Shown: positions 27,559 through 54,700 of the stretch, piece by piece
How positions within the stretch are numbered: position 1 is the first letter of the stretch
Layout: the number at the start of each line of letters is the position of its first letter
Source: an uncultured Actinomycetota bacterium
Lineage (GTDB): Bacteria; Actinomycetota; Actinomycetes; JACCUZ01
DNA length: 64,000 bases
NCBI GenBank assembly: GCA_963746175.1
Contig: CAVVAH010000004.1
Location: 511,567 to 575,566, forward strand
Direction of reading: 5' to 3'
Position numbers and translations under genes: made by a program
The notes under the pieces: generated by a model
The model's database searches: none
Seen by the model: the letters and a program-made list of their open reading frames with translations, nothing else
Told to the model about the DNA's origin: nothing

Positions 27559-27623
27559 GGCAGGAGGCTAGACGAACTGTCACGACGGGCCGACACGCGG
27601 GCGCACCGCGTACCGTGGGACGG

Positions 27624-29990
27624 ATGCCCACCTCCCGGCCGCGCAGCCTGGCGGACGACCTGCGCGCGCGTGACGACGCCGATCTCGTCGCGCTGCTCCG
27701 CGCCCGGCCGGACCTGCTGTCGCCGGTGCCGTCGGACCTCGCCTCGCTGGCGGCCCGGGCGACCACCCGGCCGTCGGTGACCCGCGCGCTGGACCAGCTC
27801 GACCGGTTCGCGCTGCAGGTGGTCGAGGTGCTGTGCGCGCTGCCCGACCACGGCACGGACGCCGACGTACGCCGGCTGCTGGGCGCCGACGCGACGCCGG
27901 TGCTGGCCGACCTGCACCGCCGGGCACTGGTCTACCGCGACGAGGAGGGCGGGCTGGTGCTGCCGCGGACCGTGGTCGAGGTGCTCGGGCACGCCGCCGG
28001 GCTCGGGCCGCCGGCCGAGCAGCTGCTGCACGGCTACGGCACCGCGCGACTGGCGCGGATCGCTGCCGACGTGGGTGCCGACCTGTCCGACCCGCGGGTC
28101 GCCGGTGACCCGGTGCGCGCCTCGCACGCGGTCGCGCAGGTGCTCGCCGACGGCGGGCGGCTGACGGCCCTGCTCGCCGCCGCCCCGGCCGGTGCGACGG
28201 AGGCGCTGGCGACCATGACGTGGGGGCCGCCCACCGGGCACCTCGAGCGGGCCCGCCGCGAGGTCGACGCGGCGAGCGCGGGGAGCCCTGTCGAGTGGCT
28301 GCTGGCGCACGGCCTCCTCGTCGGCACCGACCCGGTGACGGTCGTGCTCCCGCGCGAGGTCGCGCTGCACCTGCGCGGGGGCCGGGTCCACGAGGCACCC
28401 CAGCCGACGGTGCCGGCTCCGGAGACGTCCCCTGTCGACGCCTCCCGGGTCGACCGGGTCGCGGCCGGTGCGGCGGCCGACGTCGTGCGGCTCGTCGACG
28501 AGCTGCTCGAGCTCTGGTCCACCGAGCCACCCAAGGTGCTGCGCGCCGGCGGTGTCGGCGTGCGGGAGCGCGCCAGGGCGGCGACGGCGCTCGACCTCGA
28601 CGAGCCGGCGCTGGCCCTGCTCGCCGAGGTCGCCCAGGCGGCCGGCCTGCTCGGGTCCGGCGACGACGGCAGCGCCGACGCCGAGGTGTGGCTGCCGACA
28701 CCGGCGTACGACGGCTGGCTGGACGAGCCGGTCGAGGTCCGGTGGGCGACGTTGGCGCGGGCCTGGCTGACCACGACCCGGGTGGCCGGGCTGGCCGGCA
28801 GCCAGGACGTGCGCGGCAGGACGCTGGCCCCGCTCGGCCCTGACCTGGACCGCACCGTCGCGCCGGTCGTGCGCGCCGGCGTGCTGGGCGACCTCGCCGC
28901 CCTGCCGGTCGGCACCGCGACGACGACCGCGTCGCTGACGGCCCGGCTGCGCTGGCACGCGCCGCGCCGCGGTGGCCGGCTGCACGACGACCTCGTCGGC
29001 TGGACGGTGCGCGAGGGCGAGCGGCTCGGCCTGCTCTCCGGCGGCGCCCTCGCCGTCCACGGCCGTGCCCTGGTCGAGGGCCGCCCCGACGACGCCGTCG
29101 GCGCGCTGGCCGCGCTGCTGCCCGCGCCGCTCGACCACGTGCTGCTGCAGGCCGACCTCACCGCGGTCGCGCCCGGTCCGCTGGAGCCCGGGCTGGCCCG
29201 CTCGGTCCGGCTGGTCGCCGACGTCGAGTCCACCGGTGGCGCGACGGTCTACCGCTTCACCGAGGCGACCGTGCGCCGGGCGTTCGACGCGGGCTGGACG
29301 GCCGGCGACGTCACCAGCCTGCTGACCAAGCACTCCCGCACGCCGGTGCCGCAGCCGCTGACCTACCTCGTCGAGGACGTGGCGCGCCGGCACGGCCGGG
29401 TCCGGGTCGGCGCCGCGTCGTCGTTCGTCCGGTGCGACGACGAGGCGACTCTCGGCGTCCTGCTCTCCGACCGCAAGGTCAGCAGCCTCGGCCTCCGCCG
29501 GATCGCGCCGACCGTCCTGGCGTCGACGTCGCCACCGGACGTCGTTCTGGAGCGGCTGCGCGAGGCGGGCCTGGCACCCGCCGCCGAGGGCCCGGACGGC
29601 GCCGTCGTGGTCCGGCGGCCCGAGTCGCGCCGCTCGCCCGTCCGCCGGCGCCCGGTGCCGGTGGCGACGGCCGCGCCGACGCCGCCGTCCGACCCGCTGC
29701 TCGACGCCGCGGTGCGCGCGATCCGCGGCGGCGACCGGGCGGGCTCGCTCAGCACCGGCCGCCCGACGGCGGACGTGCTGGCGATGCTGGTGCAGGCCGC
29801 GGGCTCCGGCGAGGCGCTGTGGATCGGCTACGTCGACGCCGAGGGCCGGGCCACCCAGCGGGTCGTCGAGCCGGTCGCGGTCGAGGGCGGCTACCTCAAC
29901 GCCTACGACCACCTGCGCGGCGCCGTCCGGTCGTTCGCCGTGCACCGGATCACCGGTGTCTCGCCGCTGGACGACGACGCCGTCTCCTGA
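27624..29990 (+). CDS. Helicase-associated domain protein (XPB partner, Rv0862c-like) with C-terminal WYL domain
   Basis: LLQADLTAVAPGPL, ADVESTGGATVYRFTEATVRRAFDAG, PVPQPLTYLVEDVARRHG. C-terminal WIGYVD...RSFAVHRI is WYL-like. Confidence 0.88.
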   Translation: MPTSRPRSLADDLRARDDADLVALLRARPDLLSPVPSDLASLAARATTRPSVTRALDQLDRFALQVVEVLCALPDHGTDADVRRLLGADATPVLADLHRRALVYRDEEGGLVLPRTVVEVLGHAAGLGPPAEQLLHGYGTARLARIAADVGADLSDPRVAGDPVRASHAVAQVLADGGRLTALLAAAPAGATEALATMTWGPPTGHLERARREVDAASAGSPVEWLLAHGLLVGTDPVTVVLPREVALHLRGGRVHEAPQPTVPAPETSPVDASRVDRVAAGAAADVVRLVDELLELWSTEPPKVLRAGGVGVRERARAATALDLDEPALALLAEVAQAAGLLGSGDDGSADAEVWLPTPAYDGWLDEPVEVRWATLARAWLTTTRVAGLAGSQDVRGRTLAPLGPDLDRTVAPVVRAGVLGDLAALPVGTATTTASLTARLRWHAPRRGGRLHDDLVGWTVREGERLGLLSGGALAVHGRALVEGRPDDAVGALAALLPAPLDHVLLQADLTAVAPGPLEPGLARSVRLVADVESTGGATVYRFTEATVRRAFDAGWTAGDVTSLLTKHSRTPVPQPLTYLVEDVARRHGRVRVGAASSFVRCDDEATLGVLLSDRKVSSLGLRRIAPTVLASTSPPDVVLERLREAGLAPAAEGPDGAVVVRRPESRRSPVRRRPVPVATAAPTPPSDPLLDAAVRAIRGGDRAGSLSTGRPTADVLAMLVQAAGSGEALWIGYVDAEGRATQRVVEPVAVEGGYLNAYDHLRGAVRSFAVHRITGVSPLDDDAVS

Positions 29991-30063
29991 CGCTCGCACC
30001 CATGCCCCCGGCCCTGCCGCGCGCCGGGCTGACTCCTGGGGCAGGACCACGACTCCTGGCGCA

Positions 30064-30130
30064 TGACCACGTAGACGTGGTCAACACACGCTTGTCGGGG
30101 TGTCGATGCCACGACAAGCACATACTCGCC
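30064..30130. repeat. Palindromic dispersed repeat family B, copy 1
   Basis: TGACCACGT-AG-ACGTGGTCA plus a second stem GCTTGTCG..CGACAAGC. 54/67 identical, ungapped, to 39543..39609 by hand count. Confidence 0.85.
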
Positions 30131-30309
30131 CTGCCAAGCAGGTGTTGGGGGGAGCTCGCACTCGTGCCCGCACCGCCCTCCGCGCGCCGGGCTTGCCGCG
30201 TTTGCCCCATCTGCCCCTTCGGATTTCGTCGGCCCGTCGTCGGCGCCGTCACAGGTCCGCCGGACGGGCCTAGATTTCGCAGCACGGCACCTACCGCGTG
30301 GAGGACACC

Positions 30310-30765
30310 ATGACCACGACCGACGAGCTCGTCGCCGTCCTGGCGAAGGTCGACCTGTTCGACGGGCTCGACCACAAGCTGCTGCGGAGCATCGCGGAGG
30401 CCGGCCGCGAGGAGACGTTCGAGCCCGGGGCCACGGTGCTCTCGGAGGGCGAGGAGGTCAGCGGCTTCCGGTCGTTCTCACCCAAGGGTGTCGAGATGCA
30501 CGTCGTCCTGGCCGGCAGCGCGAGCGCCGGCGTCGGGGGCACGGCGCACGGCACGCTCGGGCCAGGCGACTACTTCGGAGAGGTGTCGCTCATCGACGGC
30601 CGGCCGCGGTCCGCCGACATCGTCGCCGGGGACGACGGGCTGACGACGTTCGGCCTCGCGAAGTGGACCTTCCACGAGCTGCTGGAGACGCACCCGGAGA
30701 TCGCGGTCCCGATGCTGCGTGTCATGACGGCGCGGCTGCGCGCCGCCGAGCACCCACGCGCCTGA
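30310..30765 (+). CDS. Stand-alone cyclic-nucleotide-binding domain protein
   Basis: LGPGDYFGEVSLIDGRPRSAD phosphate-binding cassette; GGAGG RBS; no DNA-binding domain. Confidence 0.88.
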   Translation: MTTTDELVAVLAKVDLFDGLDHKLLRSIAEAGREETFEPGATVLSEGEEVSGFRSFSPKGVEMHVVLAGSASAGVGGTAHGTLGPGDYFGEVSLIDGRPRSADIVAGDDGLTTFGLAKWTFHELLETHPEIAVPMLRVMTARLRAAEHPRA

Positions 30766-30780
30766 GGACGGTCGGACTGC

Positions 30781-31773
30781 TCAGCGGTAGGCGACCGACC
30801 CGGCCGGCTTCGCGAGCCGCGCGTCGCGGCGGGTGTTGACCGCCGTACGCAGCCGCAGCTGGGCGATCTTCCTCGCGAACCGCAGGAGGTCGGCCGGCGG
30901 CACCGTCGGGCGGTCCGGTACGTCGTAGCCGAGCCGGCGCATCCGGGAGCCGGCCACCCGCTCGACGAGGGCGACCTCCGCGGGCGTGAGCACCCCGGCG
31001 TAGGTGCCGACCCGCTGGGTGCCGACCTGGTTCTGGGTCTCGCGGTGCCAGCCGCCGCGCTGCCGTTCGGGCAGCCGGGCCGCCTCCACCGGGTGGTCCA
31101 GCATCGCCTCCTCGAAGTCCTCGCCCAGGAAGGAGCACAGCCGCTGCAGCTCGGCGCGCGGGTCGGCGACGAGGTCCTCGTAGCGCAGCTCGTGGAAGGC
31201 GCCGGCCGGCAGCCGGCGACGGGCGGCCCGCGCCAGGTCGACGGCGTGCACCCAGGTCGCCACGGCCCCGACCGTCCCGTGCTTCCACCACGACATCCGC
31301 TTGAGCGAGCCGACGCAGTCGCGGGGGTCGCGCACCAGGTGCACGACCTGCGCGTCCGGGAACAACGCCAGGAGCACGCCGACGTTGCGGAAGTAGCCCG
31401 GTCGCTTGTCGCCCCAGCGCGGCTTGCCGCGGTCGGCGGCGTAGAGCCGGTACGGCGCCGCCAGCGCGCTCCCCATCGTCGGCGAGCCCTCGACGACCTC
31501 CTTCTTCACCCGGTCGGCGTCGATCCCGAGGTGCCGGAACTTCGTGCCCTTCCGGCGCACGACCGCCCGGGCCAGCCGGCGCCGGTTGTGCTTGTCGGTG
31601 AGGTCGCCGAAGGCGCGGCGGCGCCGGAACACCGGCAGCAGGAACCGGGTCTCCGGCGGGATGGCGAGGCGCGAGTGGCTGCTGAGCATCAGCGTGAGCA
31701 GCGTGGTGCCCGACCGCGGGCAGCCGATGACGAAGACCGGCCGGTCGCCGGACACGGGGGCTGGGGTGGGCAT
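30781..31773 (-). CDS. Sulfotransferase family protein (paralog 2)
   Basis: FVIGCPRSGTT, LAIPPETRF, RWGDKRP, HLVRDPRD and LRYEDLVADP; clearly paralogous to 26536..27558. Confidence 0.9.
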   Translation of the reverse strand: MPTPAPVSGDRPVFVIGCPRSGTTLLTLMLSSHSRLAIPPETRFLLPVFRRRRAFGDLTDKHNRRRLARAVVRRKGTKFRHLGIDADRVKKEVVEGSPTMGSALAAPYRLYAADRGKPRWGDKRPGYFRNVGVLLALFPDAQVVHLVRDPRDCVGSLKRMSWWKHGTVGAVATWVHAVDLARAARRRLPAGAFHELRYEDLVADPRAELQRLCSFLGEDFEEAMLDHPVEAARLPERQRGGWHRETQNQVGTQRVGTYAGVLTPAEVALVERVAGSRMRRLGYDVPDRPTVPPADLLRFARKIAQLRLRTAVNTRRDARLAKPAGSVAYR

Positions 31774-31926
31774 CGCGCGACAGGGTATCCGCGCCGCGTC
31801 GGCGAGCCGGACGCGTCCTGCTACGCCGTGGAGACGGCGTGTCTTCACTGCCCGTAAATCCGTTGTCACTCAGTGCACTGGGGCTGTCGACCGTTTGTCC
31901 GATACCCCTCACTTGCCCGCTGCTGG

Positions 31927-32003
31927 AGGCTTACGTTCTACGCGCCGCGGGTGAGGGAGACGCCCGTGTGTCATCGCGTTCACCACCTCATGGGGGGCTC
32001 ATG
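31927..32003 (+). promoter_or_regulatory. Conserved promoter/5' leader, copy 1
   Basis: TACGTT -10-like hexamer followed by a hairpin-forming leader and G6 RBS; near-identical to 35189..35263. Confidence 0.7.
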
Positions 32004-35000
32004 CACCGCGCACGTCGTTCGACCACCCGTTCCACGGTCCGCTCACTCGGCACCGCGTTCCTCGCGATCGTCGTCGCCGTCCTCGGGCTGCCGCTGCTGC
32101 CCTCGGCCGCATCGGCGACGGCCATCACGGCCGGCTACCAGGACCAGGACTACGCCTCTGCGTCACGGCCCGGACGAGGTGACCTCGTACCACTCGCAGA
32201 ACAAGCTGTGGTTCAACGACGGCCGCTGGTGGTCGGTCATGTGGCGCCCGGACGCTGCGGGTGGTCCGAAGTGGACTATCAACGAGCTCATCAACCCGGG
32301 AACTGCCGCGCAGTCCTGGAGCAACACGAACGTCGAGGTCGATCCACGCAACAAGAGCCACTACGACGTGCTCTCCGACGGCGCCAAGCTCTACATCGCC
32401 GCGTCGAACGACAACGCGGCCACGAACGAGATCCGGGTCTTCACGTTCAACTACAACGTCGGCACTCACAGCTACAGCAGCGCTGCCGGCTCTGCGACAC
32501 TCCCGACCTCACTTATCGACAGCACGCCTACCGGGCTGGGCGTGAGCTACGCGAGCCTGGCCAAGTCCGGCTCGACGCTGTGGATCGGCTACGCGTCCGA
32601 CAACAAGGTGTGGACGGCGTCGTCGCCGACCTCCGGCGCAGGGACGACATGGTCCCCCCCGGCCCCCCTGACCGTGTCTGCGGGTACCGAGCCGATCGTC
32701 GGCGCAGCTGGTTCGACGCTTCAGCTCGACGACATCGCTGTGCTCGTCCCGATCAATGGTGGCGTCGGCGTCATGTGGAGCCGGACCAGCACGACCGGCA
32801 CCGACTTCGGGGGATTCTTCTTCCAGAAGAACACCACGGGCACCTGGGGCGGGCAGGAGACGGCCTGGGCCGGTACCTCGATCGGTGACAACCACATCAG
32901 CGCCAAGACGGCCACCGACGGCCGCGTCATCGTCGCGGTCAAGTCCAGCCTGGACAAGAACGGGACCAACACCGACCCGCTGATCGGTGTCCTGGCCCGC
33001 AGCACCGCCGGCGCCTGGACCGTGCCGACAAGCTCGGTGACGACGACCGGCGGCACACCGGTTGCCGGCCGCAAGGTCGCCACCGTGATCCAGGGCGTCA
33101 CCCGGCCGATGCTGGTGCTCGACGAGGGCGGCAACAGCGCCGACGTCTACTTCTCGACCGCGGTCGGCGGCGGCGACATCAACCGCCGCGTCGCGCCGTT
33201 GACGACGTTGAGCTTCACCGACCCGGGGCTGACCTCGGCAAAGCCAGGCGAGAAGATGATCGACGGTCCCGGCGTCACCACCATCAATGACGCCACGTCC
33301 ACCAAGCAGGTGCTCGACAGCCGCTCCACCGGAACCGGCATCGTCGTCCTCGCCTCCAACATTGCAACGACCGACTACGTGCACAGCTGCGTGGGTGGTG
33401 TCTGCGCCGCCGTGACCCCCGAGCCGTCGGCGTTCACCGCAACCCCGTCGTCCGGGACTGCGCCGCTCGCGGTGTCGTTCGGGGCGCCGGCCGGTGCCAC
33501 GAGCTCGTCGTGGAACTTCGGCGACGGGACTCCAGCGGGCTCCGGCACGCCCGTTTCGCACACCTACAGCACGGCCGGGACCTACACCGTCACCTACACC
33601 GGTCAGTTCACGGCCGGACAGCGGGTGATGAGCCAGACCGTCACCGTGACGGCGCCGGTGGTCACTCCCCCTCCGCCGCCGCCCGGTGGTGGAGGCACCA
33701 CGCCGGCCTGCACCGGCTGCCCGACGGCGTCGTTCACGATGGACGCCTCCTCGGGGCGGACGCCGTTCACGGTGCAGTTCACCGACACCTCCGTGGGTGC
33801 GACGAGCCGGTCGTGGAACTTCGGTGACGGAGTGACCGACACCACCGCGAACCCGACGCACACCTACACCGCGTCCGGGACCTACACCGTGACCCTCACT
33901 GCGAGCAACGCGAGCGGCTCGACCAGCTCGGCGCAGACCGTCACCGTCATCAACGGCGGCGCCCGGTTCACCCCGGTGGCACCGACGACGGCGCTCAAGG
34001 GCAAGGCGATCGGCGCCGGGCAGTTCGCGACGCTGACGCTCAAGCCGCCGCCCGGCACCAACACGGTGGCGCTCAACGTGTCGGTCACCAAGGCGAGCGC
34101 ATCGACGACCGTCTCGGTGTGCACGGGCGACGACCTGCCGGCCGACTGCACCGCCCAGACAGTGGTCCGGGCACGCAAGGGCGGCAAGGGGTCCGGCTTC
34201 ACCATCACGAAGCTCGACGCCACCGACTCGGTGAAGATCTGGAACGCGGCGGGAACCGCAGTCGTCAAGGCCGAGGTCGAGGGCTGGTTCGGCGGCAAGA
34301 CGGACCAGAGCTACTTCGTGCCGCAGGGCAACCGACGGATCCTGACCTCGGCCAAGGTGGGCGGCAACAAGGCGTACACGCTCACCATCCCGAAGTCCCT
34401 TCGGCCGAGCGGCACCCGGGCCGTGGCGCTGAACGTCTGGGCCACCAGCGCCTCCACCGCGACCGACGTGTCGGTGTGCAACGCGGGCGTGGGGAAGAAG
34501 GCGTGCAAGAAGCACCCGACCCTCTACACCGGCAAGGGCGCCGCCGTGAGCACGCACGTCGTCACGACGATGGGCTCGGGCGGCAAGGTGAAGCTGGTCA
34601 ACCGCAAGGGCAGCGTCCGGCTCACGGTCGCGGTCCAGGGCGTCTACACCTCGGGAGCAACGGGTGCGACGTTCCGGCCGAACCCGCTGCGTCGGGTCCT
34701 GACCACCCAGACGCTGGGGGCGAAGAAGTCCTTCACGATGTCGATGAAGTCGCTGCCGGCGGGCACGAGCACGGTGGCGCTCCGCGTCACCATCGGGTCG
34801 GCGACGTCGACCGGCTCGGTGGCGGTCTGCACCGGCGGCACCGCGACGAAGGTCTGCAAGGCCTCGCCCACGGTGCCGGTGCAGAAGGGCCGGGTGACCA
34901 ACCAGGTGGTGTTCGCCAAGGTCGGACCGGGCGGCACCGTGAAGTTCTGGAACGCCGCAGGCACCACGAAGATCACCGTGGACGTCTTCGGATCCCTGGG

Positions 35001-35010
35001 TCGCACCTGA
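32001..35010 (+). pseudogene. Large secreted protein A (repeat-rich N-terminal domain, 2 PKD domains, 3 basic Cx8C modules), interrupted by a +1 frameshift near 32160
   Basis: The signal peptide MHRARR...LPSAASA lies in one frame (ATG 32001) and the body (GPDEVTSYHSQNKLWFNDG onward) in the +1 frame. PKD motifs SWNFGDG...HTY...GTYTV occur twice. This could be a true frameshift or a sequence error. Confidence 0.75.
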
Positions 35011-35027
35011 CAGACCGCCTGCACGTC

Positions 35028-35066
35028 CGGACGGCCCGTCTCGCACCGAGCGAGACGGGCCGTTCG
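35028..35066 (+). terminator. Intrinsic terminator-like hairpin after secreted protein A
   Basis: CGGACGGCCCGTCTCGC-N5-GCGAGACGGGCCGTTCG. Confidence 0.8.
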
Positions 35067-35188
35067 CGTCTGAGCGCACCGTGGTCGACGGCGTTCGTCG
35101 GCCCGCCTTCACCCGCTGTATGGGCTGTCGTCACGCAACGCCAACATTTCGACCAATAGCCGCATACCGCCACCTGGCCCGCAGGCCA

Positions 35189-35263
35189 AGGCTTACGTTC
35201 GACGCGCCCCGGGTGAGGCAGACGCCCGGTGTCCTCGCTCATCACGTCATGGGGGGCCTCATG
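35189..35263 (+). promoter_or_regulatory. Conserved promoter/5' leader, copy 2
   Basis: Near-identical to 31927..32003. Confidence 0.7.
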
Positions 35264-37693
35264 CAGCGCGCTCGCCGTCCTTCGTCCAACGGTTCGCGTC
35301 GGCGGCCCGTCGCGACCTTCGCCCTGTGGGCACTCGTCGCCCTGCTCGGCCTGTCCCTGCTGCCCAGCGCCCCGGCGTCCGCGGCCCGTGCCGACGGCGC
35401 CGGCTTCGTCGACTTCGCGTACGGCAGCGCCACCAACGACGTCACGGCCCACAGCTCGCAGAGCAAGGTGTGGTGGAACGCCGGGTCCTGGTGGGCGGTG
35501 ATGATGGAACCCGCGGAGGGCGGGCTGGTGCCGCACGAGACGCGGTGGGCGATCTTCCGGCTCGACATGCCGTCCCAGACCTGGGTCAGCACCAGGGTGC
35601 AGGTGGACGAGCGCAACCAGTCCCACCCCGACGTCCTCGCCTTCGGCAACAGGCTCTACGTCGTGTCGTCCTACTCGCGGACCGAGACCGGCGCGGTCAA
35701 GGTCTTCGCCTACGACTACGCCGCCGCGTCGGATACCTACGTCCTGGACCCGCTGTTCGTCGACAGCGACCCGATCGAGGGCAGCCCGGGCCGGTTCGAC
35801 GACGGCATCGAGACTCCCGCCAAGGGTGTCCAGTACGCCACGATCGCCCGAAGCAACGACTCGCTGTTCATCGCTTACACGTCCAATAACGGCGTCTGGT
35901 GGATGAGGTCCGACCTCACGGGCGTCACCTGGGAGGGGCCGGCGCAGATCAGCACCGGCGCCCGGTCGCCCATCTCCGGGCCGCCGGGACCGGCCACGTC
36001 CTCCAGCGACGACATCGCCCAGGCCGTCGGCTTCGGCGACGGGCAGGTCGGCATCATGTGGAGCCGCACCAGCACGACCGCGGCGCCCTACGGTGGCTTC
36101 TTCTTCGCGACCTTCAACGGCTCCGGCTTCGGGGACCCGGAGGTCGCGTGGGAGGGCGCCGACGTCGGCGACAACCACATCAGCGTGAAGACCGCTGGTG
36201 CCCGGGTCCTCGTCGCCGTGAAGACGAGCTTCAAGGGGACGGACGATCCTCTCGTGTCGGTGCTCGAGCGCAACGGCAGCACGCCGTGGGCCCAGCACAC
36301 CGTCATCACCCGCAATGCGGCCGGCGTCAGCCGGGATGCGACCCGTCCGGTGCTGGTCCTCGACCAGGGCAGCGCGCACGTGTTCATGACCGACCGGGTC
36401 GACGGCGGTGCGATCTACCGCAACGCCGCGCCCCTGAGCACGCTGAGCTTCCCGAACGGGCTGGGTGAGGCGTTCATCGCCAGCTCGGCGCACCAGTTCG
36501 TCAACGACGCGACCACCACCAAGCAGCAGGTCGACACCGCTGCGTGGGGCCTGGTGGCGCTCGGGAGCGACGACCGGCCGGGCGTCGACACCTACCTGCA
36601 CGGCTGCATCGGCGGACCCTGCGCGACCGGCGGGGTGGCACCGCCGCCCACCGCGGCGACCCCGACCTCGACGGCCCTGACGACCTCGCCGAACCCGTCG
36701 ACGGCAGGTGGCGCCGTCACGCTCGACGCCACCGTCACGGGCGGGCCCGGCATCGGCGGGACCATCACCTTCTTCGACGGCACCGCGCAGCTCAAGACCG
36801 TCGCTCTCAGCGGTGGCAGCGCGTCGACCACCACTGCCACCCTGGGTGAGGGCACGCACCCGCTGCGGGCGGTGTACAGCTCCAGCGGCACCTACGCAGC
36901 GAGCAGCTCGCCGGTGGTCACGCAGACCGTGCTGGCGGCGCCGCCGGGCAGTGCGAGCGGCGGGGGCGGACCCATCACGAGGGCTCCGGTCGGGACGCGG
37001 TTCCAGGTGCTCGCAACGCCGAAGCGAGTGGTGACCGGACGGAAGGTCGGACCCCGCAAGATCAAGACGGTCGGCCTGCCCGCACCGGCCGGCGCCAAGG
37101 CGGTGGCCGTCAACGTCAGCGTCCAGGCCGGCACGAAGCGCACGGTCGTCTCGGTCTGCGCCGGCGGCACGACGAAGGCCGCCTGCAAGCGCAGCAAGGT
37201 CGTGCGAGTCGACGAACGCGACCGCAAGGCAGGCCTCGCGACCGTGACCCTGCCGGCGGGTGCGGAGGTCCGCGTCTACAACTCCCGTGGGAAGGCGCGC
37301 GTCTCCCTGGATATCCAGGGCTGGTACGTCAGAGACGCGTCGCGGGCACTGTTCACCGGGCTGGCCCGGCCCCAGCGAGTGCTGAAGTGGACCACGGTCG
37401 GCTCGCACCACGTGCTGAAGATCCCGAAGAGCATGCGGCCGAGCGGAACGGTGGCGGTCGAGCTGGCCCTGACGGCGAAACGGGCCGGCCGGTCGTCCGC
37501 CCTGGCTGCCTGCCGCAAGGCAGCGAGCCAGAAGGCCTGCCTCGCCCACCCGACGCTGTACGCGGACCGGGGAACCACCGTGACGAACCGGGTCATCGTG
37601 AAGCTTGACAAGAAGGGAAGGGTCCAGCTGGTCAACGGCTCCGGATCGGTGCGCGTCAAGGCGTTCCTGCGGGGGGTCTACACGAGGAGCTGA
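35261..37693 (+). CDS. Large secreted protein B, paralog of protein A (same N-terminal domain, one Ig-like domain, 2 basic Cx8C modules)
   Basis: Signal peptide; shared motifs SQSKVWWNAG, GIMWSR, GDNHISVKT, TRPVLVLD, NDATTTKQ. Ig-like TLDATV...GTITFFDG...LGEGTHPLRAVYS. Confidence 0.85.
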   Translation: MQRARRPSSNGSRRRPVATFALWALVALLGLSLLPSAPASAARADGAGFVDFAYGSATNDVTAHSSQSKVWWNAGSWWAVMMEPAEGGLVPHETRWAIFRLDMPSQTWVSTRVQVDERNQSHPDVLAFGNRLYVVSSYSRTETGAVKVFAYDYAAASDTYVLDPLFVDSDPIEGSPGRFDDGIETPAKGVQYATIARSNDSLFIAYTSNNGVWWMRSDLTGVTWEGPAQISTGARSPISGPPGPATSSSDDIAQAVGFGDGQVGIMWSRTSTTAAPYGGFFFATFNGSGFGDPEVAWEGADVGDNHISVKTAGARVLVAVKTSFKGTDDPLVSVLERNGSTPWAQHTVITRNAAGVSRDATRPVLVLDQGSAHVFMTDRVDGGAIYRNAAPLSTLSFPNGLGEAFIASSAHQFVNDATTTKQQVDTAAWGLVALGSDDRPGVDTYLHGCIGGPCATGGVAPPPTAATPTSTALTTSPNPSTAGGAVTLDATVTGGPGIGGTITFFDGTAQLKTVALSGGSASTTTATLGEGTHPLRAVYSSSGTYAASSSPVVTQTVLAAPPGSASGGGGPITRAPVGTRFQVLATPKRVVTGRKVGPRKIKTVGLPAPAGAKAVAVNVSVQAGTKRTVVSVCAGGTTKAACKRSKVVRVDERDRKAGLATVTLPAGAEVRVYNSRGKARVSLDIQGWYVRDASRALFTGLARPQRVLKWTTVGSHHVLKIPKSMRPSGTVAVELALTAKRAGRSSALAACRKAASQKACLAHPTLYADRGTTVTNRVIVKLDKKGRVQLVNGSGSVRVKAFLRGVYTRS

Positions 37694-37706
37694 CTGCTCT
37701 CACGAC

Positions 37707-37745
37707 CGACGGGCACCGCGGACGGCCGGTTCGCTGTGCCCGTCG
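37707..37745 (+). terminator. Hairpin after secreted protein B
   Basis: CGACGGGCAC...GTGCCCGTCG with an inner GCGGAC/GTTCGC stem. Confidence 0.65.
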
Positions 37746-37861
37746 ACGTGTCTCAGGCGGCGGACCTGACGGACCTGAGCTCCGTGGAAGCGATCGTGCC
37801 GGCCGATGGTTGACACTGGTCCGGTGTGTTCTGGTCGCCGCCAACCGTGGAAAGGTCCTGC

Positions 37862-39514
37862 ATGACTGATGGCCCACTGATCGTGCAGTCGGACAAGACC
37901 CTCCTGCTCGAGGTCGACCACGAGCAGGCCGGTGACTGCCGTCGCGCGATCGCGCCGTTCGCCGAGCTGGAGCGGTCGCCGGAGCACGTGCACACCTACC
38001 GGCTGACCCCGCTGGGGCTGTGGAACGCGCGCGCTGCCGGGCACGACGCCGAGCAGGTCGTCGACGTGCTGCTCCGGTACTCGCGGTACGCCGTGCCGCA
38101 CGCCCTGCTGGTCGACGTCGCAGACACGATGGCCCGCTACGGCCGGCTGCGACTGGAGAAGCACCCGGTGCACGGGCTGGTCCTCATCACCACCGACCGC
38201 GCGGTCCTCGAGGAGGTCGTCCGGTCGAAGAAGGTCAGCCCGCTGATCGGCGCCCGCGTCGACGACGACTCCGTCGCGGTGCACCCCTCGGAGCGCGGCC
38301 ACCTCAAGCAGGTGCTGCTCAAGCTCGGCTGGCCCGCCGAGGACCTGGCCGGCTACGTCGACGGCGAGGCCCACGCGATCGCGCTGCGCGAGGACGGCTG
38401 GCACATGCGGGCGTACCAGCAGGAGGCGGTGGACGGCTTCTGGCACGGCGGGTCCGGCGTGGTCGTCCTCCCCTGCGGCGCTGGCAAGACGATCGTCGGC
38501 GCGGCCGCGATGGCCCGGGCCGGTGCGACCACGCTGATCCTCGTCACCAACACGGTGTCCGCCCGGCAGTGGCGGCACGAGCTGCTCAAGCGCACCTCGC
38601 TGACCGAGGACGAGATCGGCGAGTACTCCGGTGCCCGCAAGGAGGTCCGGCCGGTCACCATCGCGACCTACCAGGTGATGACGACCCGCCGGAAGGGCGT
38701 CTACACGCACCTCGAGCTGCTCGACGCGCGCGACTGGGGACTCGTCGTCTACGACGAGGTGCACCTGCTGCCGGCGCCGATCTTCCGGATGACCGCCGAC
38801 CTGCAGGCCCGACGGCGGCTCGGGCTCACCGCGACGCTGGTGCGCGAGGACGGCCGCGAGGGCGACGTGTTCTCGCTGATCGGCCCGAAGCGCTACGACG
38901 CGCCGTGGAAGGACATCGAGGCGCAGGGCTGGATCGCACCGGCCGACTGCGTCGAGGTGCGGGTGACGCTGACCGACTCCGAGCGGCTCGCGTACGCCAT
39001 GGCCGAGCCGGAGGAGCGCTACCGGTTCGCGTCCTGCACGCCGTCCAAGACCCGCGTCGTGGAGCGGCTGGTCGAGCGCCACCGCGGTGACCAGGTGCTC
39101 GTCATCGGCCAGTACCTCGACCAGCTCGACGACCTCGGCGAACGGTTGGACGCCCCGGTCATCAAGGGTGACACCACCGTCAAGGAGCGGGAGCGGCTGT
39201 TCCAGGCGTTCCGCACGGGCGAGGTGTCGCTGCTGGTCGTGTCGAAGGTGGCGAACTTCTCCATCGACCTGCCCGAGGCCGCCGTCGCCATCCAGGTGTC
39301 GGGGACCTTCGGCTCGCGGCAGGAGGAGGCTCAGCGGCTCGGCCGGGTGCTGCGTCCCAAGGCCGACGGGCGCACCGCCCGGTTCTACGCCGTCACGGCA
39401 CGCGACACCGTCGACCAGGACTTCGCCGCGCACCGGCAGCGGTTCCTCGCCGAGCAGGGCTACGCCTACCGGATCGTCGACTCCGACGACCTCCCCACCC
39501 TCGACGCCAGCTGA
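37862..39514 (+). CDS. ercc3: XPB/ERCC3-family SF2 DNA helicase
   Basis: PLIVQSDKTLLLE, LPCGAGKT, VYDEVH, LGLTATLVREDG, SKVANFSIDLP, QEEAQRLGR. Confidence 0.95.
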   Translation: MTDGPLIVQSDKTLLLEVDHEQAGDCRRAIAPFAELERSPEHVHTYRLTPLGLWNARAAGHDAEQVVDVLLRYSRYAVPHALLVDVADTMARYGRLRLEKHPVHGLVLITTDRAVLEEVVRSKKVSPLIGARVDDDSVAVHPSERGHLKQVLLKLGWPAEDLAGYVDGEAHAIALREDGWHMRAYQQEAVDGFWHGGSGVVVLPCGAGKTIVGAAAMARAGATTLILVTNTVSARQWRHELLKRTSLTEDEIGEYSGARKEVRPVTIATYQVMTTRRKGVYTHLELLDARDWGLVVYDEVHLLPAPIFRMTADLQARRRLGLTATLVREDGREGDVFSLIGPKRYDAPWKDIEAQGWIAPADCVEVRVTLTDSERLAYAMAEPEERYRFASCTPSKTRVVERLVERHRGDQVLVIGQYLDQLDDLGERLDAPVIKGDTTVKERERLFQAFRTGEVSLLVVSKVANFSIDLPEAAVAIQVSGTFGSRQEEAQRLGRVLRPKADGRTARFYAVTARDTVDQDFAAHRQRFLAEQGYAYRIVDSDDLPTLDAS

Positions 39515-51754: not shown

Positions 51755-54700
51755 ATGTCGCGGGGCGCCTCCGGGTCGGTGACCGTCGCCGCGCTGCGCC
51801 ACCGCCCCCGGCAGGCCCTCCTCGTCGTCGTCCTGGCGGCCGTGGTCACCGCCTCGGCCGCTCTCGGGCCGCTGTACGCCCGCGCGGTTGAGCAGTCCGT
51901 CCTGCGCAACGTCGTCGCCGACGCCCCCGCGACCAGCAGCACGCTGGTCGTGACCGACGCCTCGGACCAGCCCGCGTCGCCGGCGAGGCTGCAACGGCTG
52001 GTCCGGAGCGAGCTCACGCCGCAGTTCGGCCGACCGGTGCAGGGCGCCGAGGTCTCCGTCGTCCTCAGCACCCCGGCGGGCGAGTCGGGCAGGAGCCGGC
52101 TCACGAGCCGGGCCGGCGTCTGCGGCCACCTCGACGTCCTCGACGGCCGCTGCGCCCGGTCGGCCGGCGAGGCGATCGTCAGCGCTCGGGCGGCCGGGCA
52201 GCTCGGTGTCGGTCCCGGCGACGTCCTGCAGGTCCGCGCGAGCACGGCCGAGGGCGGCGTCCTGCGCACCGTGACGGTGGTCGGGACCTACGGCGCCCTC
52301 GACGAGTCCAGCGACTACTGGGCCGGCCGGGCCCGCCCGCCGACCGTGGCAAGGCCGCAGACCGACGCGGCCGTCCAGCGCACCGTCGACGACGTCATCA
52401 CCCCGTGGCCGACCCTGGCGGCCACGGCGTGGCCAGCCCTCCGGACCCACCTGGACGTGCCGCTCCGTGCCGAGCGGTTGAGCCTGGACAACCTCCCCCA
52501 GGTCCGAGCTGTGACTGCCGACGTCGATGACCGGGCCCGCACCGTCGGCGGAGCAGCAGTCAGCCCGATCAACGACCTGCTCGCCTCGACGACCGGTCAG
52601 CGCGACCAGGCCCGCACCGTCATCCCGCTGCTCGCCGTGCAGCTGGCGGTGCTCGGCATCGTCGTGCTGGCGTTCGTCTGCGCCGCCGCTGCCGAGCAGC
52701 GCCGTCCGGAGATCGCCCTGGCCAGGCTGCGCGGGCACGGGGTCCTCGGAGCCGCGGGCATGCTGCTGCGCGAGCTGGGGCTGCTCGTCGTCGCCGGTGC
52801 GATCCTCGGCTCCGGTCTCGGCTGGCTGGTCGGCGAGGGGGCGGCCCGCTGGTGGCTGGAGGCGGGGGTCCGCCCGGAGCTGCGGGCACCTGTCGTCCTC
52901 GCCGTCCTGGCGTCCGTCGTCGCCGGGCTGCTGGCCATCGTCGCCGCAGCCACACCGACCCTGCGTCAGCCGCTGACAGCGCTGCTGCGCCGGGTACCGC
53001 CGCGCGCGTCGTCGTTGCAGATCGGTCTCGTCGAGGGCGCCGTCGTCGCAGCAGCCGCGGCGGGACTGGTGACGCTGCTCTCCGGAGCGGGCGGCGGGAT
53101 CTCGCTGCTGGCACCCGGGCTGCTGGCGATCGCCGGTGGCCTGCTGCTGGCCCAGGCCACGATCCCCACCGCCGGCCCCCTCGCGCGGGCCGCGATGCGC
53201 CGTGGCCGGGTGCCCTGGGCGCTCGCGGGGCTGCAGATCGCCCGCCGTCCGGCGCTGCGCCGGCTGATCGCGATCATCACGGTGGCCTGCGCGCTGCTGG
53301 TCTTCGCCGTCGACGCCTGGTCGGTCTCGACCCGCAACCGCGAGACCCGCGCCGAGCTGGAGGCGGGCGCCCCGGTCGTCCTCACGGTCGACGCGACCAG
53401 TCCGACAGCGCTCCGCACCGCCGTGCTCGACATCGACCCGCACGGCCGGTTTGCGACCCCGGTCGTCGTCACCCACTCGGCGACTCCGGTCGGCCCCGTG
53501 ACGACCGCGGTCGAGCCGGCGGCGTTCCGGCGGATCGCGCAGTGGGCGCCCGGCACGAGGGTGCCCTCGCCACGCCGGATCCGTTCCCTCCAGCCGCCCG
53601 TCGTCGACCGCGTGCCGCTGGCTGCCGGCACCGGCCTCGCCGTCGACGCGCGCTGGACGGCGAAGCCCCTCGACCGGCCCGCCGGCGTGCGGGGCAACCT
53701 GCAGAAGCTCACGCTCTCGGTCAGCGTCACGCCCAGGGGCGAGGAGCCGCGCTACCTCTACCTCGGCCGCCTCCGCGCCGGCCGGCACGTCTACCGCGCG
53801 CCCTTCACGTGCGACGACTGCACCCTGACGTCGTTCGTCATCGCGCGCGAGTTCGGCGACTCGTACCCCGTCCGCGTCTCGCTGACCGTCGACAGGGTGA
53901 CCTTCGCCGGCCAGCCGGTGGACCTCGGGCCCAGCACTCCCGAGGCCTGGCAGGTCGGCAGCGAGCAGGCGTTCTTCAGCAGCGCCCGGGTCCGGCCCGG
54001 CCCACCGCTGACGATCGCCGACCGCGAGAGCTACGCCACCCTCGAGGTGCGCCGCGGTGACGTCCCGGCGCTCACCCCGGCCTTGATGGCGGGGAACCTG
54101 TCGCTGATGTTCCACGGCGGCCCCGACGACCCAGCATCGCCGCGCGTGGCGCCGGACCTGTCCGGTGGCGAGCACTTCTACAAGATCGTCGGACGCATCT
54201 CGCAGGTGCCGCGGTCCGGCCCGCGCGGCGTCGTCTCCGACCTGCGGTCGCTGATCGGTGCCTCGGCGCCCGGCGGCCTCACCACGACGTACGACGTGTG
54301 GCTGGCCGCCGACGACCCGGCCCGCGAGGCCCGGCTGCGCGCCAGGCTGGCCGACCACGGCCTGCTGGTCGTTGCACGCGACTCGACCGGGGAGCACGTC
54401 GCTGCGCTGGCCAGCGAGGGGCCGTCGCTGGCGCTCCGGCTCGCTCTGCTGGCCGGATTCGTCGCCGTCGTGCTCGCCGCGGCCGTGCTGGTCGTCGGCG
54501 TCGCGACGTCGGGTGCCAGCCGGGCCCGCGACCTGGCGGGACTGCGCCTGGTCGGCGTACCGGCCGCGACCGTGCGCCGGGCGTCGGTGCGCGAGCATCT
54601 GGTCGTGGCCGTGCTCGGGGTGCTCGCCGGGACGACCCTGGGGCTGGTCGCAGCGCAGGCGGCCCTGCCGGACATCCCGCTCTTCGCCCGCCCGGACCGG

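Follow-up and report, generated by a model that had tools for sequence, protein, structure and literature searches.

Two tandem paralogous genes, here called A and B, lie in the 64,000-nt stretch of soil actinobacterial DNA analysed in this work (contig CAVVAH010000004.1; hereafter the window, GC content 73.5%), and each is preceded by a near-identical leader of about 75 nt that contains a short hairpin whose position and pairing are retained in eight leaders of two clades. With moderate confidence, we interpret this unit as a shared promoter followed by a 5'-proximal mRNA stem-loop, the two copies being kept alike by purifying selection and by gene conversion. The two genes and the two hairpins are:

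32001..35010, + strand: gene A, secreted beta-propeller protein with two PKD domains (translation; Pfam PKD), starting at ATG 32001
35261..37693, + strand: gene B, secreted protein of 810 aa with N-terminal beta-propeller, Big_3_5 Ig-like domain and C-terminal beta domains (Pfam; AlphaFold2)
31946..31968, + strand: leader hairpin A, 5' arm 31946–31953, loop AGGGAGA 31954–31960, 3' arm 31961–31968
35209..35229, + strand: leader hairpin B, 5' arm 35209–35215, loop AGGCAGA 35216–35222, 3' arm 35223–35229

Conservation of the leader, its pairing pattern, its copy number and the signature of gene conversion were all observed directly. Global alignment of nt 31927–32003 with nt 35189–35263 resulted in 78 columns, with 68 identical positions, 6 substitutions and 4 gap columns, exactly as claimed in a first-pass annotation of this DNA made from the sequence alone, while 2000 random pairs of window stretches of equal lengths shared on average 49 identical positions (sd 2.3, maximum 57). 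The TACGTT hexamer, the hairpin CGGGTG-N7-CGCCCG and the sequence TCATGGGGGG listed by the same annotation were found in both leaders, and the similarity that it had noted further upstream does extend, in a weaker form, for about 190 nt ahead of both. A 39-nt core pattern, admitting three free positions, matched only twice in the window, at the two leaders, with 0 matches expected in shuffled sequences.

The proteins encoded by the two genes are 40–41% identical, consistent with the divergence initially described, and their aligned codons show a nucleotide identity of 56% overall, 53% at third positions and 43% at fourfold-degenerate sites, versus 87% between the leaders. The leader is thus conserved far better than the coding sequence, given the low identity of proteins, third positions and fourfold sites, and the low synonymous identity also rules out a recent duplication, an explanation for which the first annotation had proposed this very comparison. 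A coding leader or upstream ORF was likewise ruled out, as indels of 1 and 2 nt distinguish the copies and CTG takes the place of the upstream ATG in the related locus L001 (see below).

The hairpin core consists of a 7–8 bp stem with a 7-nt loop, located just downstream of -10-like hexamers. A covariance model, designated R1, scored 39.4 bits at nt 31942–31972 (gene A) and 37.5 bits at nt 35204–35234 (gene B); its best match outside the leaders (21.4 bits; nt 53037–53066, + strand) falls inside an apparent membrane-protein coding region and was judged to be due to chance. Pairs were counted in an ungapped alignment of eight leaders from two clades, namely the two of the window, two from the L001 locus and four from a second clade. 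In this alignment 93.8% of the cells pair, compared with 28–56% when the 3' partners are slid by one to three columns, and only 1 of 500 shuffles attained the observed pairing or covariation score. Column pair 8–24 is G-C in four leaders and C-G in the other four, column pair 11–21 is U.G in six and C-G in two, column pair 12–20 is G-C in seven and G.U in one, and column pair 6–26 is found as GC, GU or CG, so that two pairs change on both sides. All changes within the six inner pairs preserve pairing. Since on the opposite strand the U.G pair would turn into an A.C mismatch, the structure appears specific to the sense strand, which fits what an mRNA element would show.

Folding gave a concordant picture. 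When RNAalifold was applied to the whole UTR of the eight leaders, the sole consensus structure was this 6-bp helix, and the hairpin is the minimum-free-energy fold in each of the eight (-14.1 kcal/mol in A, -13.3 kcal/mol in B). A further outer pairing, of (G/T)ACGC with GTGT, had been proposed at first but did not hold, because only six inner pairs are retained by RNAalifold and pairs past the eighth are not conserved. The shared inner stem combined with two outer pairs and a loop of 7 nt occurs at 1.4e-4 per nt in comparable DNA, and the chance of meeting the shared inner stem and the loop length in the equivalent 40-nt stretch of an independent clade is about 0.006. Within the loop, whose sequence is AGGGAGA in the window A leader and in L001A, AGGGAGT in L001B, AGGCAGA in the window B leader and CAGCAGC, AACCAGC or AAGCAGC in the second clade, the dinucleotide AG at loop positions 5–6 is invariant in all eight leaders, which hints at a role in protein docking.

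Variation among strains in four soil sequencing runs is in line with these data. Eleven variable sites of the A leader were listed in nt 31880–31936, clustering at nt 31917–31926, and none in nt 31938–32030; the sole change in TACGTT, 31936 T>G, retains the TAnnnT pattern. A divergent B-type strain, detected in run X8, carries both a G>C change at 35211 in the 5' arm and an additional G in the 3' arm: the predicted fold of its hairpin reaches -15.6 kcal/mol with both changes, but -12.0 kcal/mol with G>C alone (reference, -14.3 kcal/mol).

Searches for relatives placed the element in a narrow lineage. Full-length homologues of gene B number only about ten in 5.8 billion proteins, and the relatives are labelled as Sporichthyaceae, Frankiales or Actinomycetota metagenome-assembled genomes (MAGs). 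The same A-B tandem is present in the Actinomycetota MAG MFD02581 (L001/L024), with B 87% and A 71–74% identical to the window, and both its A and its B orthologue are preceded by the core GCGCCGYGGGTGAGGGAGWCGCCC. Scanning a genome collection with the core retrieved 35 loci; the only true match was in the L001/L024 genome, with exactly two copies. The remaining loci were coding-sequence coincidences in unrelated genes, e.g., a conserved Kocuria/Arthrobacter gene, and a regulon-wide operator was accordingly rejected. In the second clade (L003, L005, L122 and L123), whose proteins are about 55% identical, a hairpin of the form CCGG(T/C)G-(7 nt)-(C/T)GCCGG was found at the equivalent place, between an nACGAT hexamer and CATGGGGGG. 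A metagenome protein-profile scan yielded about 80 further homologues of roughly 30% identity, none of them with the hairpin.

The first annotation had not recognised any riboswitch class in the leader, and indeed no family of Rfam 15 was hit in the whole window at gathering thresholds. At E<=10, the region 31780–32080 gave a single weak match, on the antisense strand, to Proteo-phage-1, with 18.8 bits for a threshold of 42. The hairpin leader belongs to no described RNA family.

The resemblance between the two window leaders appears to have a second source besides selection. The four leaders of the window clade (winA, winB, L001A and L001B) were compared segment by segment in all six pairs: the core is 80–87% identical in each of the six, and the flanks between orthologues are about 50–60% identical. 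In the segments flanking the core, winA and winB share 21/30 and 22/27 positions, against 13–18 of 27–30 columns in the other pairs, while in an upstream block, termed b (see below), it is L001A and L001B that are closest (24/30, against 16–20 of 29–30). As different segments have been homogenised genome by genome, this pattern points to recurrent gene conversion over short tracts between tandem paralogues 3.3 kb from each other, superimposed on a selected core. By this comparison, much of the 75-nt near-identity in the window is attributable to genome-specific homogenisation of the flanks and not to selection on all 75 nt. The original proposal of a structured leader under selection can consequently be retained for the hairpin, which is kept through compensatory and wobble changes in eight leaders of two clades, but not for the full leader length.

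The putative promoter and translation signals, together with a hairpin that follows gene A, are:

31887..31906, + strand: upstream block b of gene A, TCGACCGTTTGTCCGATACC, position weight matrix score 29.0, conserved before all B-type homologues
35149..35168, + strand: upstream block b of gene B, TCGACCAATAGCCGCATACC, ranking second in the window by position weight matrix (score 23.0)
31926–31931 and 31932–31937, + strand: -10-like hexamers GAGGCT and TACGTT of gene A, read from the sequence (putative promoter)
35188–35193 and 35194–35199, + strand: -10-like hexamers AAGGCT and TACGTT of gene B, read from the sequence (putative promoter, by analogy with gene A, L003, L004 and L125)
31992..31997, + strand: GGGGGG ribosome-binding tract of gene A, 3 nt before ATG 32001
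35251..35256, + strand: GGGGGG ribosome-binding tract of gene B, 4 nt before ATG 35261
35030..35064, + strand: 15-bp GC-rich hairpin with a 5-nt loop, 20 nt past the gene A stop and without U-tract, read from the sequence

Block b is a 20-nt element, TCRNCCGWTYGNSSGATRNN, with an internal CCGWT-N3-SSGAT repeat, and it is kept before B-type genes (L002–L005, L122, L123 and L125), even where the hairpin is missing. Its matrix finds above noise only the two leaders in the window (best match elsewhere 12.9; shuffle maxima 10–17), and a site of a wider regulon was thus discarded. The distance from its 11-nt core to an nAnnnT hexamer is 24 nt in L003 (GACGAT), L004 (CAGGAT) and L125 (TAGAGT), and 25 nt in L002. 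In the window-clade leaders, the 24-nt position is occupied by GAGGCT, AAGGCT and CACTCT and fails in L001B, while a position at 30 nt reads TACGTT, TACGTT and TAGGTT and is imperfect in L001A; the spacer between block b and the -10-like hexamers is variable. Actinobacterial promoters usually have a TAnnnT -10 element, with transcription starting 6–8 nt downstream. On this spacing, the transcription start is predicted 1–10 nt before the hairpin, whichever hexamer is used, and block b would fall at about -47 to -37, the place of a class II activator or of a sigma-specific -35 region, either of which is a likely identity for it. A sigma-70 consensus scan returned no site, and WhiG/FliA-type, SigB/F-type and ECF-type readings of block b were set aside, no -35/-10 pair being seen by eye at the right spacing.

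Downstream of the hairpin, a linker of about 25 nt leads to the GGGGGG tract in both leaders, and a run of at least five G is present 2–8 nt before the start in 11 of the 11 family leaders compared, as well as in L125. The hairpin at 35030–35064, which is not called by a U-tract terminator scan, is probably an actinobacterial-type terminator without U-tract; with such a strong hairpin after its stop codon, gene A would be separated from gene B, which would therefore need a promoter of its own.

Taken together, each tandem paralogue would possess its own copy of one promoter-plus-leader module, for which promoter, start and molecular role are those we infer. The module would comprise the family-specific block b, spanning roughly -47 to -37, and a weak -10 hexamer, either TACGTT or its neighbour nAGGCT; a start 1–10 nt ahead of the GC-rich 7–8 bp stem-loop with its 7-nt loop would come next, followed by the linker of about 25 nt, the GGGGGG Shine-Dalgarno tract and the ATG. 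The stem-loop may act post-transcriptionally, in cis and near the 5' end of the mRNA, most likely by protecting the 5' end from RNase E or RNase J or by docking an RNA-binding protein, and would be neither a ligand sensor nor a mask of the ribosome-binding site. As a consequence, both secreted proteins would be expressed together. The two copies would owe their likeness both to purifying selection on the hairpin and to gene conversion between the upstream regions.

Several observations weigh against this interpretation. The stability of the hairpin is ordinary at such a GC content (z-scores from +0.07 to -3.2), whole leaders fold no better than their shuffles (positive z-scores), 6-bp hairpins with 7-nt loops are frequent in general (about 0.16 per 40 nt), and three outer-pair changes do break pairing in the eight leaders, which themselves amount to few independent events. 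Homology between the clades is argued from position and from a motif defined post hoc, and a covariance model built from the four window-clade leaders alone, a test of low power, misses the second-clade hairpins. The hairpin is also dispensable for the gene family, because at the equivalent place L002, L004, L121 and L125 show different hairpins or none, although block b and the G tract are retained in them; moreover, it might be untranscribed or not 5'-proximal. Finally, the core of the B orthologues is 80% identical, no higher than their fourfold-site identity of 78%. Since this value matches neutral identity, the case for selection rests on the comparisons of paralogues and of A orthologues, on the hairpin's reappearance in the second clade and on the variation among strains.

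The same equality of core and neutral-site identity, the frequency and unexceptional stability of GC hairpins, and a flank likeness that is genome-specific, as conversion predicts, are what one would expect if the leader held nothing beyond a promoter, its similarity being a remnant of gene conversion and the hairpin an incidental GC-rich palindrome. We hold this to be improbable: such a remnant would call for an ancestral tract as short as about 30 nt, the same hairpin geometry is seen again in a clade of about 55% protein identity with saturated neutral sites, every change in the inner six pairs preserving pairing, the listed strain variation of the A leader avoids the hairpin, and the stem change of the B-type strain comes with a stabilising one. 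Somewhat less doubtful, yet still unlikely in our opinion, is a DNA operator, at which a dimeric factor would repress both paralogues by binding the imperfect inverted repeat CGGGTG-N7-CGCCCG, located at about +3 to +25. A site just past the predicted start is a typical repressor position, the symmetric G-C to C-G change would be expected also from co-evolution with a dimeric protein, and loop bases conserved in the window clade about as well as the stem, with AG invariant in all the leaders, suggest sequence-specific recognition. The half-sites, however, differ (T versus C) in six of the eight leaders, the dyad being perfect only in L005 and L123, and 5 or 6 of the 8 or 9 single-sided changes are C/T transitions that retain G.U, for which a DNA palindrome offers no reason. 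Besides, the motif occurs only at the two paralogues, in the window as in the assembly of the related genome, and no regulator or transcription-factor gene is shared as a neighbour across clades; the neighbouring small ORFs (50–66 aa), considered as candidate regulators, have no Pfam domains, and the 66-aa proteins look like membrane proteins. Between the two options posed by the first-pass annotation, RNA element or DNA site, the evidence leans towards RNA.

A switch of translation or termination, by a riboswitch, a thermosensor or an attenuator, would suit a conserved non-coding leader ahead of genes in a polysaccharide-related neighbourhood, but is extremely improbable here. RNAalifold on the eight leaders returned one conserved hairpin of 6–8 bp, with no second helix and no pairing involving the G tract or the start codon, and the predicted transcribed leader is only about 55–60 nt long. 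The hairpin has no U-tract, being followed by GTGTGTCATCG or GTGTCCTCGC, and a terminator scan gave 0 sites; apart from the weak antisense match mentioned above, there was no Rfam match even at E<=10. Sequestration of the Shine-Dalgarno sequence, or pairing of the loop with downstream sequence, was considered separately and rejected, as only complementarities of 4–5 nt, not conserved, were seen (RNAalifold, by eye).

If it is a 5'-proximal mRNA stem-loop as we favour, in its mode of action the leader hairpin most resembles, by analogy, the 5'-terminal stabilising stem-loops of Escherichia coli ompA (hp1) and of the Bacillus subtilis aprE leader (reviewed in PMC3997798). As in those, a single GC-rich hairpin is predicted within a few nt of the 5' end, upstream of and separate from the ribosome-binding site and with no terminator tail, and it is conserved as a structure in the 5' UTR, the likeness being founded here on a start and a fold predicted from sequence. 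It differs in the conserved AG of the loop (positions 5–6), which a 5' cap acting by steric hindrance alone would not require. RNase E and RNase J, two nucleases dependent on 5' ends, are both present in actinobacteria. A different kind of stabilising element is the STAB-SD of the B. subtilis cryIIIA type, a Shine-Dalgarno-like sequence near the 5' end. The loop AGGGAGA of gene A is indeed Shine-Dalgarno-like and close to the predicted 5' end, but neither gene B (AGGCAGA) nor the second clade, whose loops read (A/C)A(G/C)CAGC, conserves this likeness, and the leader does not qualify as such an element.

The regulatory regions of tandem paralogues are generally known to undergo concerted evolution by gene conversion. 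The A and B upstream regions agree with this phenomenon in being closer within a genome than between orthologues, with diverged coding regions, and depart from it in that the tracts are short (tens of nt), differ between the two genomes and surround a core which is conserved between genomes as well.

Concerning the ribosome-binding site, the C-rich loops of the actinobacterial small RNA (sRNA) 6C/B11 pair with a six-G tract in the 5' UTR of Mycobacterium abscessus eccB4 (PMC10470900), and the same six-G feature, GGGGGG at the ribosome-binding site, is found in both leaders. This likeness concerns the G tract and not the hairpin, and G-rich Shine-Dalgarno sequences are common in 73% GC DNA; no Rfam match to the 6C sRNA gene was obtained within the window. 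A more elaborate scheme, in which the loop (nnSSAGn) would be bound by an RNA-binding protein and the G6 tract paired by 6C sRNA, the two forming a family-specific post-transcriptional module, kept identical by gene conversion, that in an uncultured Sporichthyaceae-like lineage gates the production of secreted beta-propeller proteins, possibly similar to polysaccharide lyases, is speculative and in our judgement quite improbable.

Regarding the products of the two genes, both have a signal peptide, a domain of about 430 aa without Pfam match and then PKD (A) or Big_3_5 (B). The AlphaFold2 model of B is all-beta (mean pLDDT 80.7), its N-terminal domain being a beta-propeller that, among solved structures, comes closest to PL24 ulvan lyase, GH43 enzymes and endosialidase, albeit at low TM-scores (0.26–0.45). 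Sulfotransferases are encoded nearby, as are glycosyltransferases and a priming transferase in other lineages, and a role of the A and B products on a possibly sulfated polysaccharide is plausible. In the second clade, a third paralogue of the propeller domain was observed (L003 3507–5372, L005 1571–3424 and L123 427–2244, all on the - strand), about 30% identical to A and B, divergently transcribed beyond a 66-aa predicted membrane protein and without leader hairpin. A 50-aa arginine-rich ORF, VR(T/Q)QQ(T/V)R(R/K)RA..., is also found near family members (L001 4700–4852, L125 716–868, both on the + strand); it has no Pfam domain, and tblastn found no match to it in the window.

In the window gene A, a 1-nt insertion at 32166 (the C in tcaCgg) separates the signal-peptide frame from the mature-protein frame. 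Because neither the public contig L124, which has an intact gene of 1002 aa, nor a contig from soil run X1 contains the extra base, the insertion is either an assembly- or copy-specific error or a strain-specific pseudogene. Over 6 kb (nt 30501–36510), the window differs from L124 (ERZ25039485 contig_3986, 3.77 Mb) by 13 substitutions and a 1-nt insertion, none of which falls in either leader. When the window and L124 are compared with L001, identity at fourfold-degenerate sites is 78% for the B orthologues and only 57% for the A orthologues; given such different values between the same two genomes, A and B appear to have had unequal rates or different histories.

The genes A and B, a sulfotransferase gene and a gene for a 151-aa protein with a cNMP-binding domain are located between those of a Helicase_C_3/WYL protein and an XPB/ERCC3-type helicase (window 27615–39514; L001 2231–14252), and the A/B cluster looks like an insertion into a conserved helicase pair. 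An XPB-type helicase also comes after gene B in L004.

The finding opens no new class of mechanism and makes no long-standing question testable. If the proposed interpretation is true, it would add an unannotated cis-regulatory leader hairpin, limited to a small family of secreted proteins of uncultured soil actinobacteria, and an example of gene conversion keeping the control regions of tandem paralogues alike as their proteins drift apart to 40% identity. It would thus aid the annotation of these metagenome-assembled genomes and may serve as a small case study in regulatory concerted evolution.

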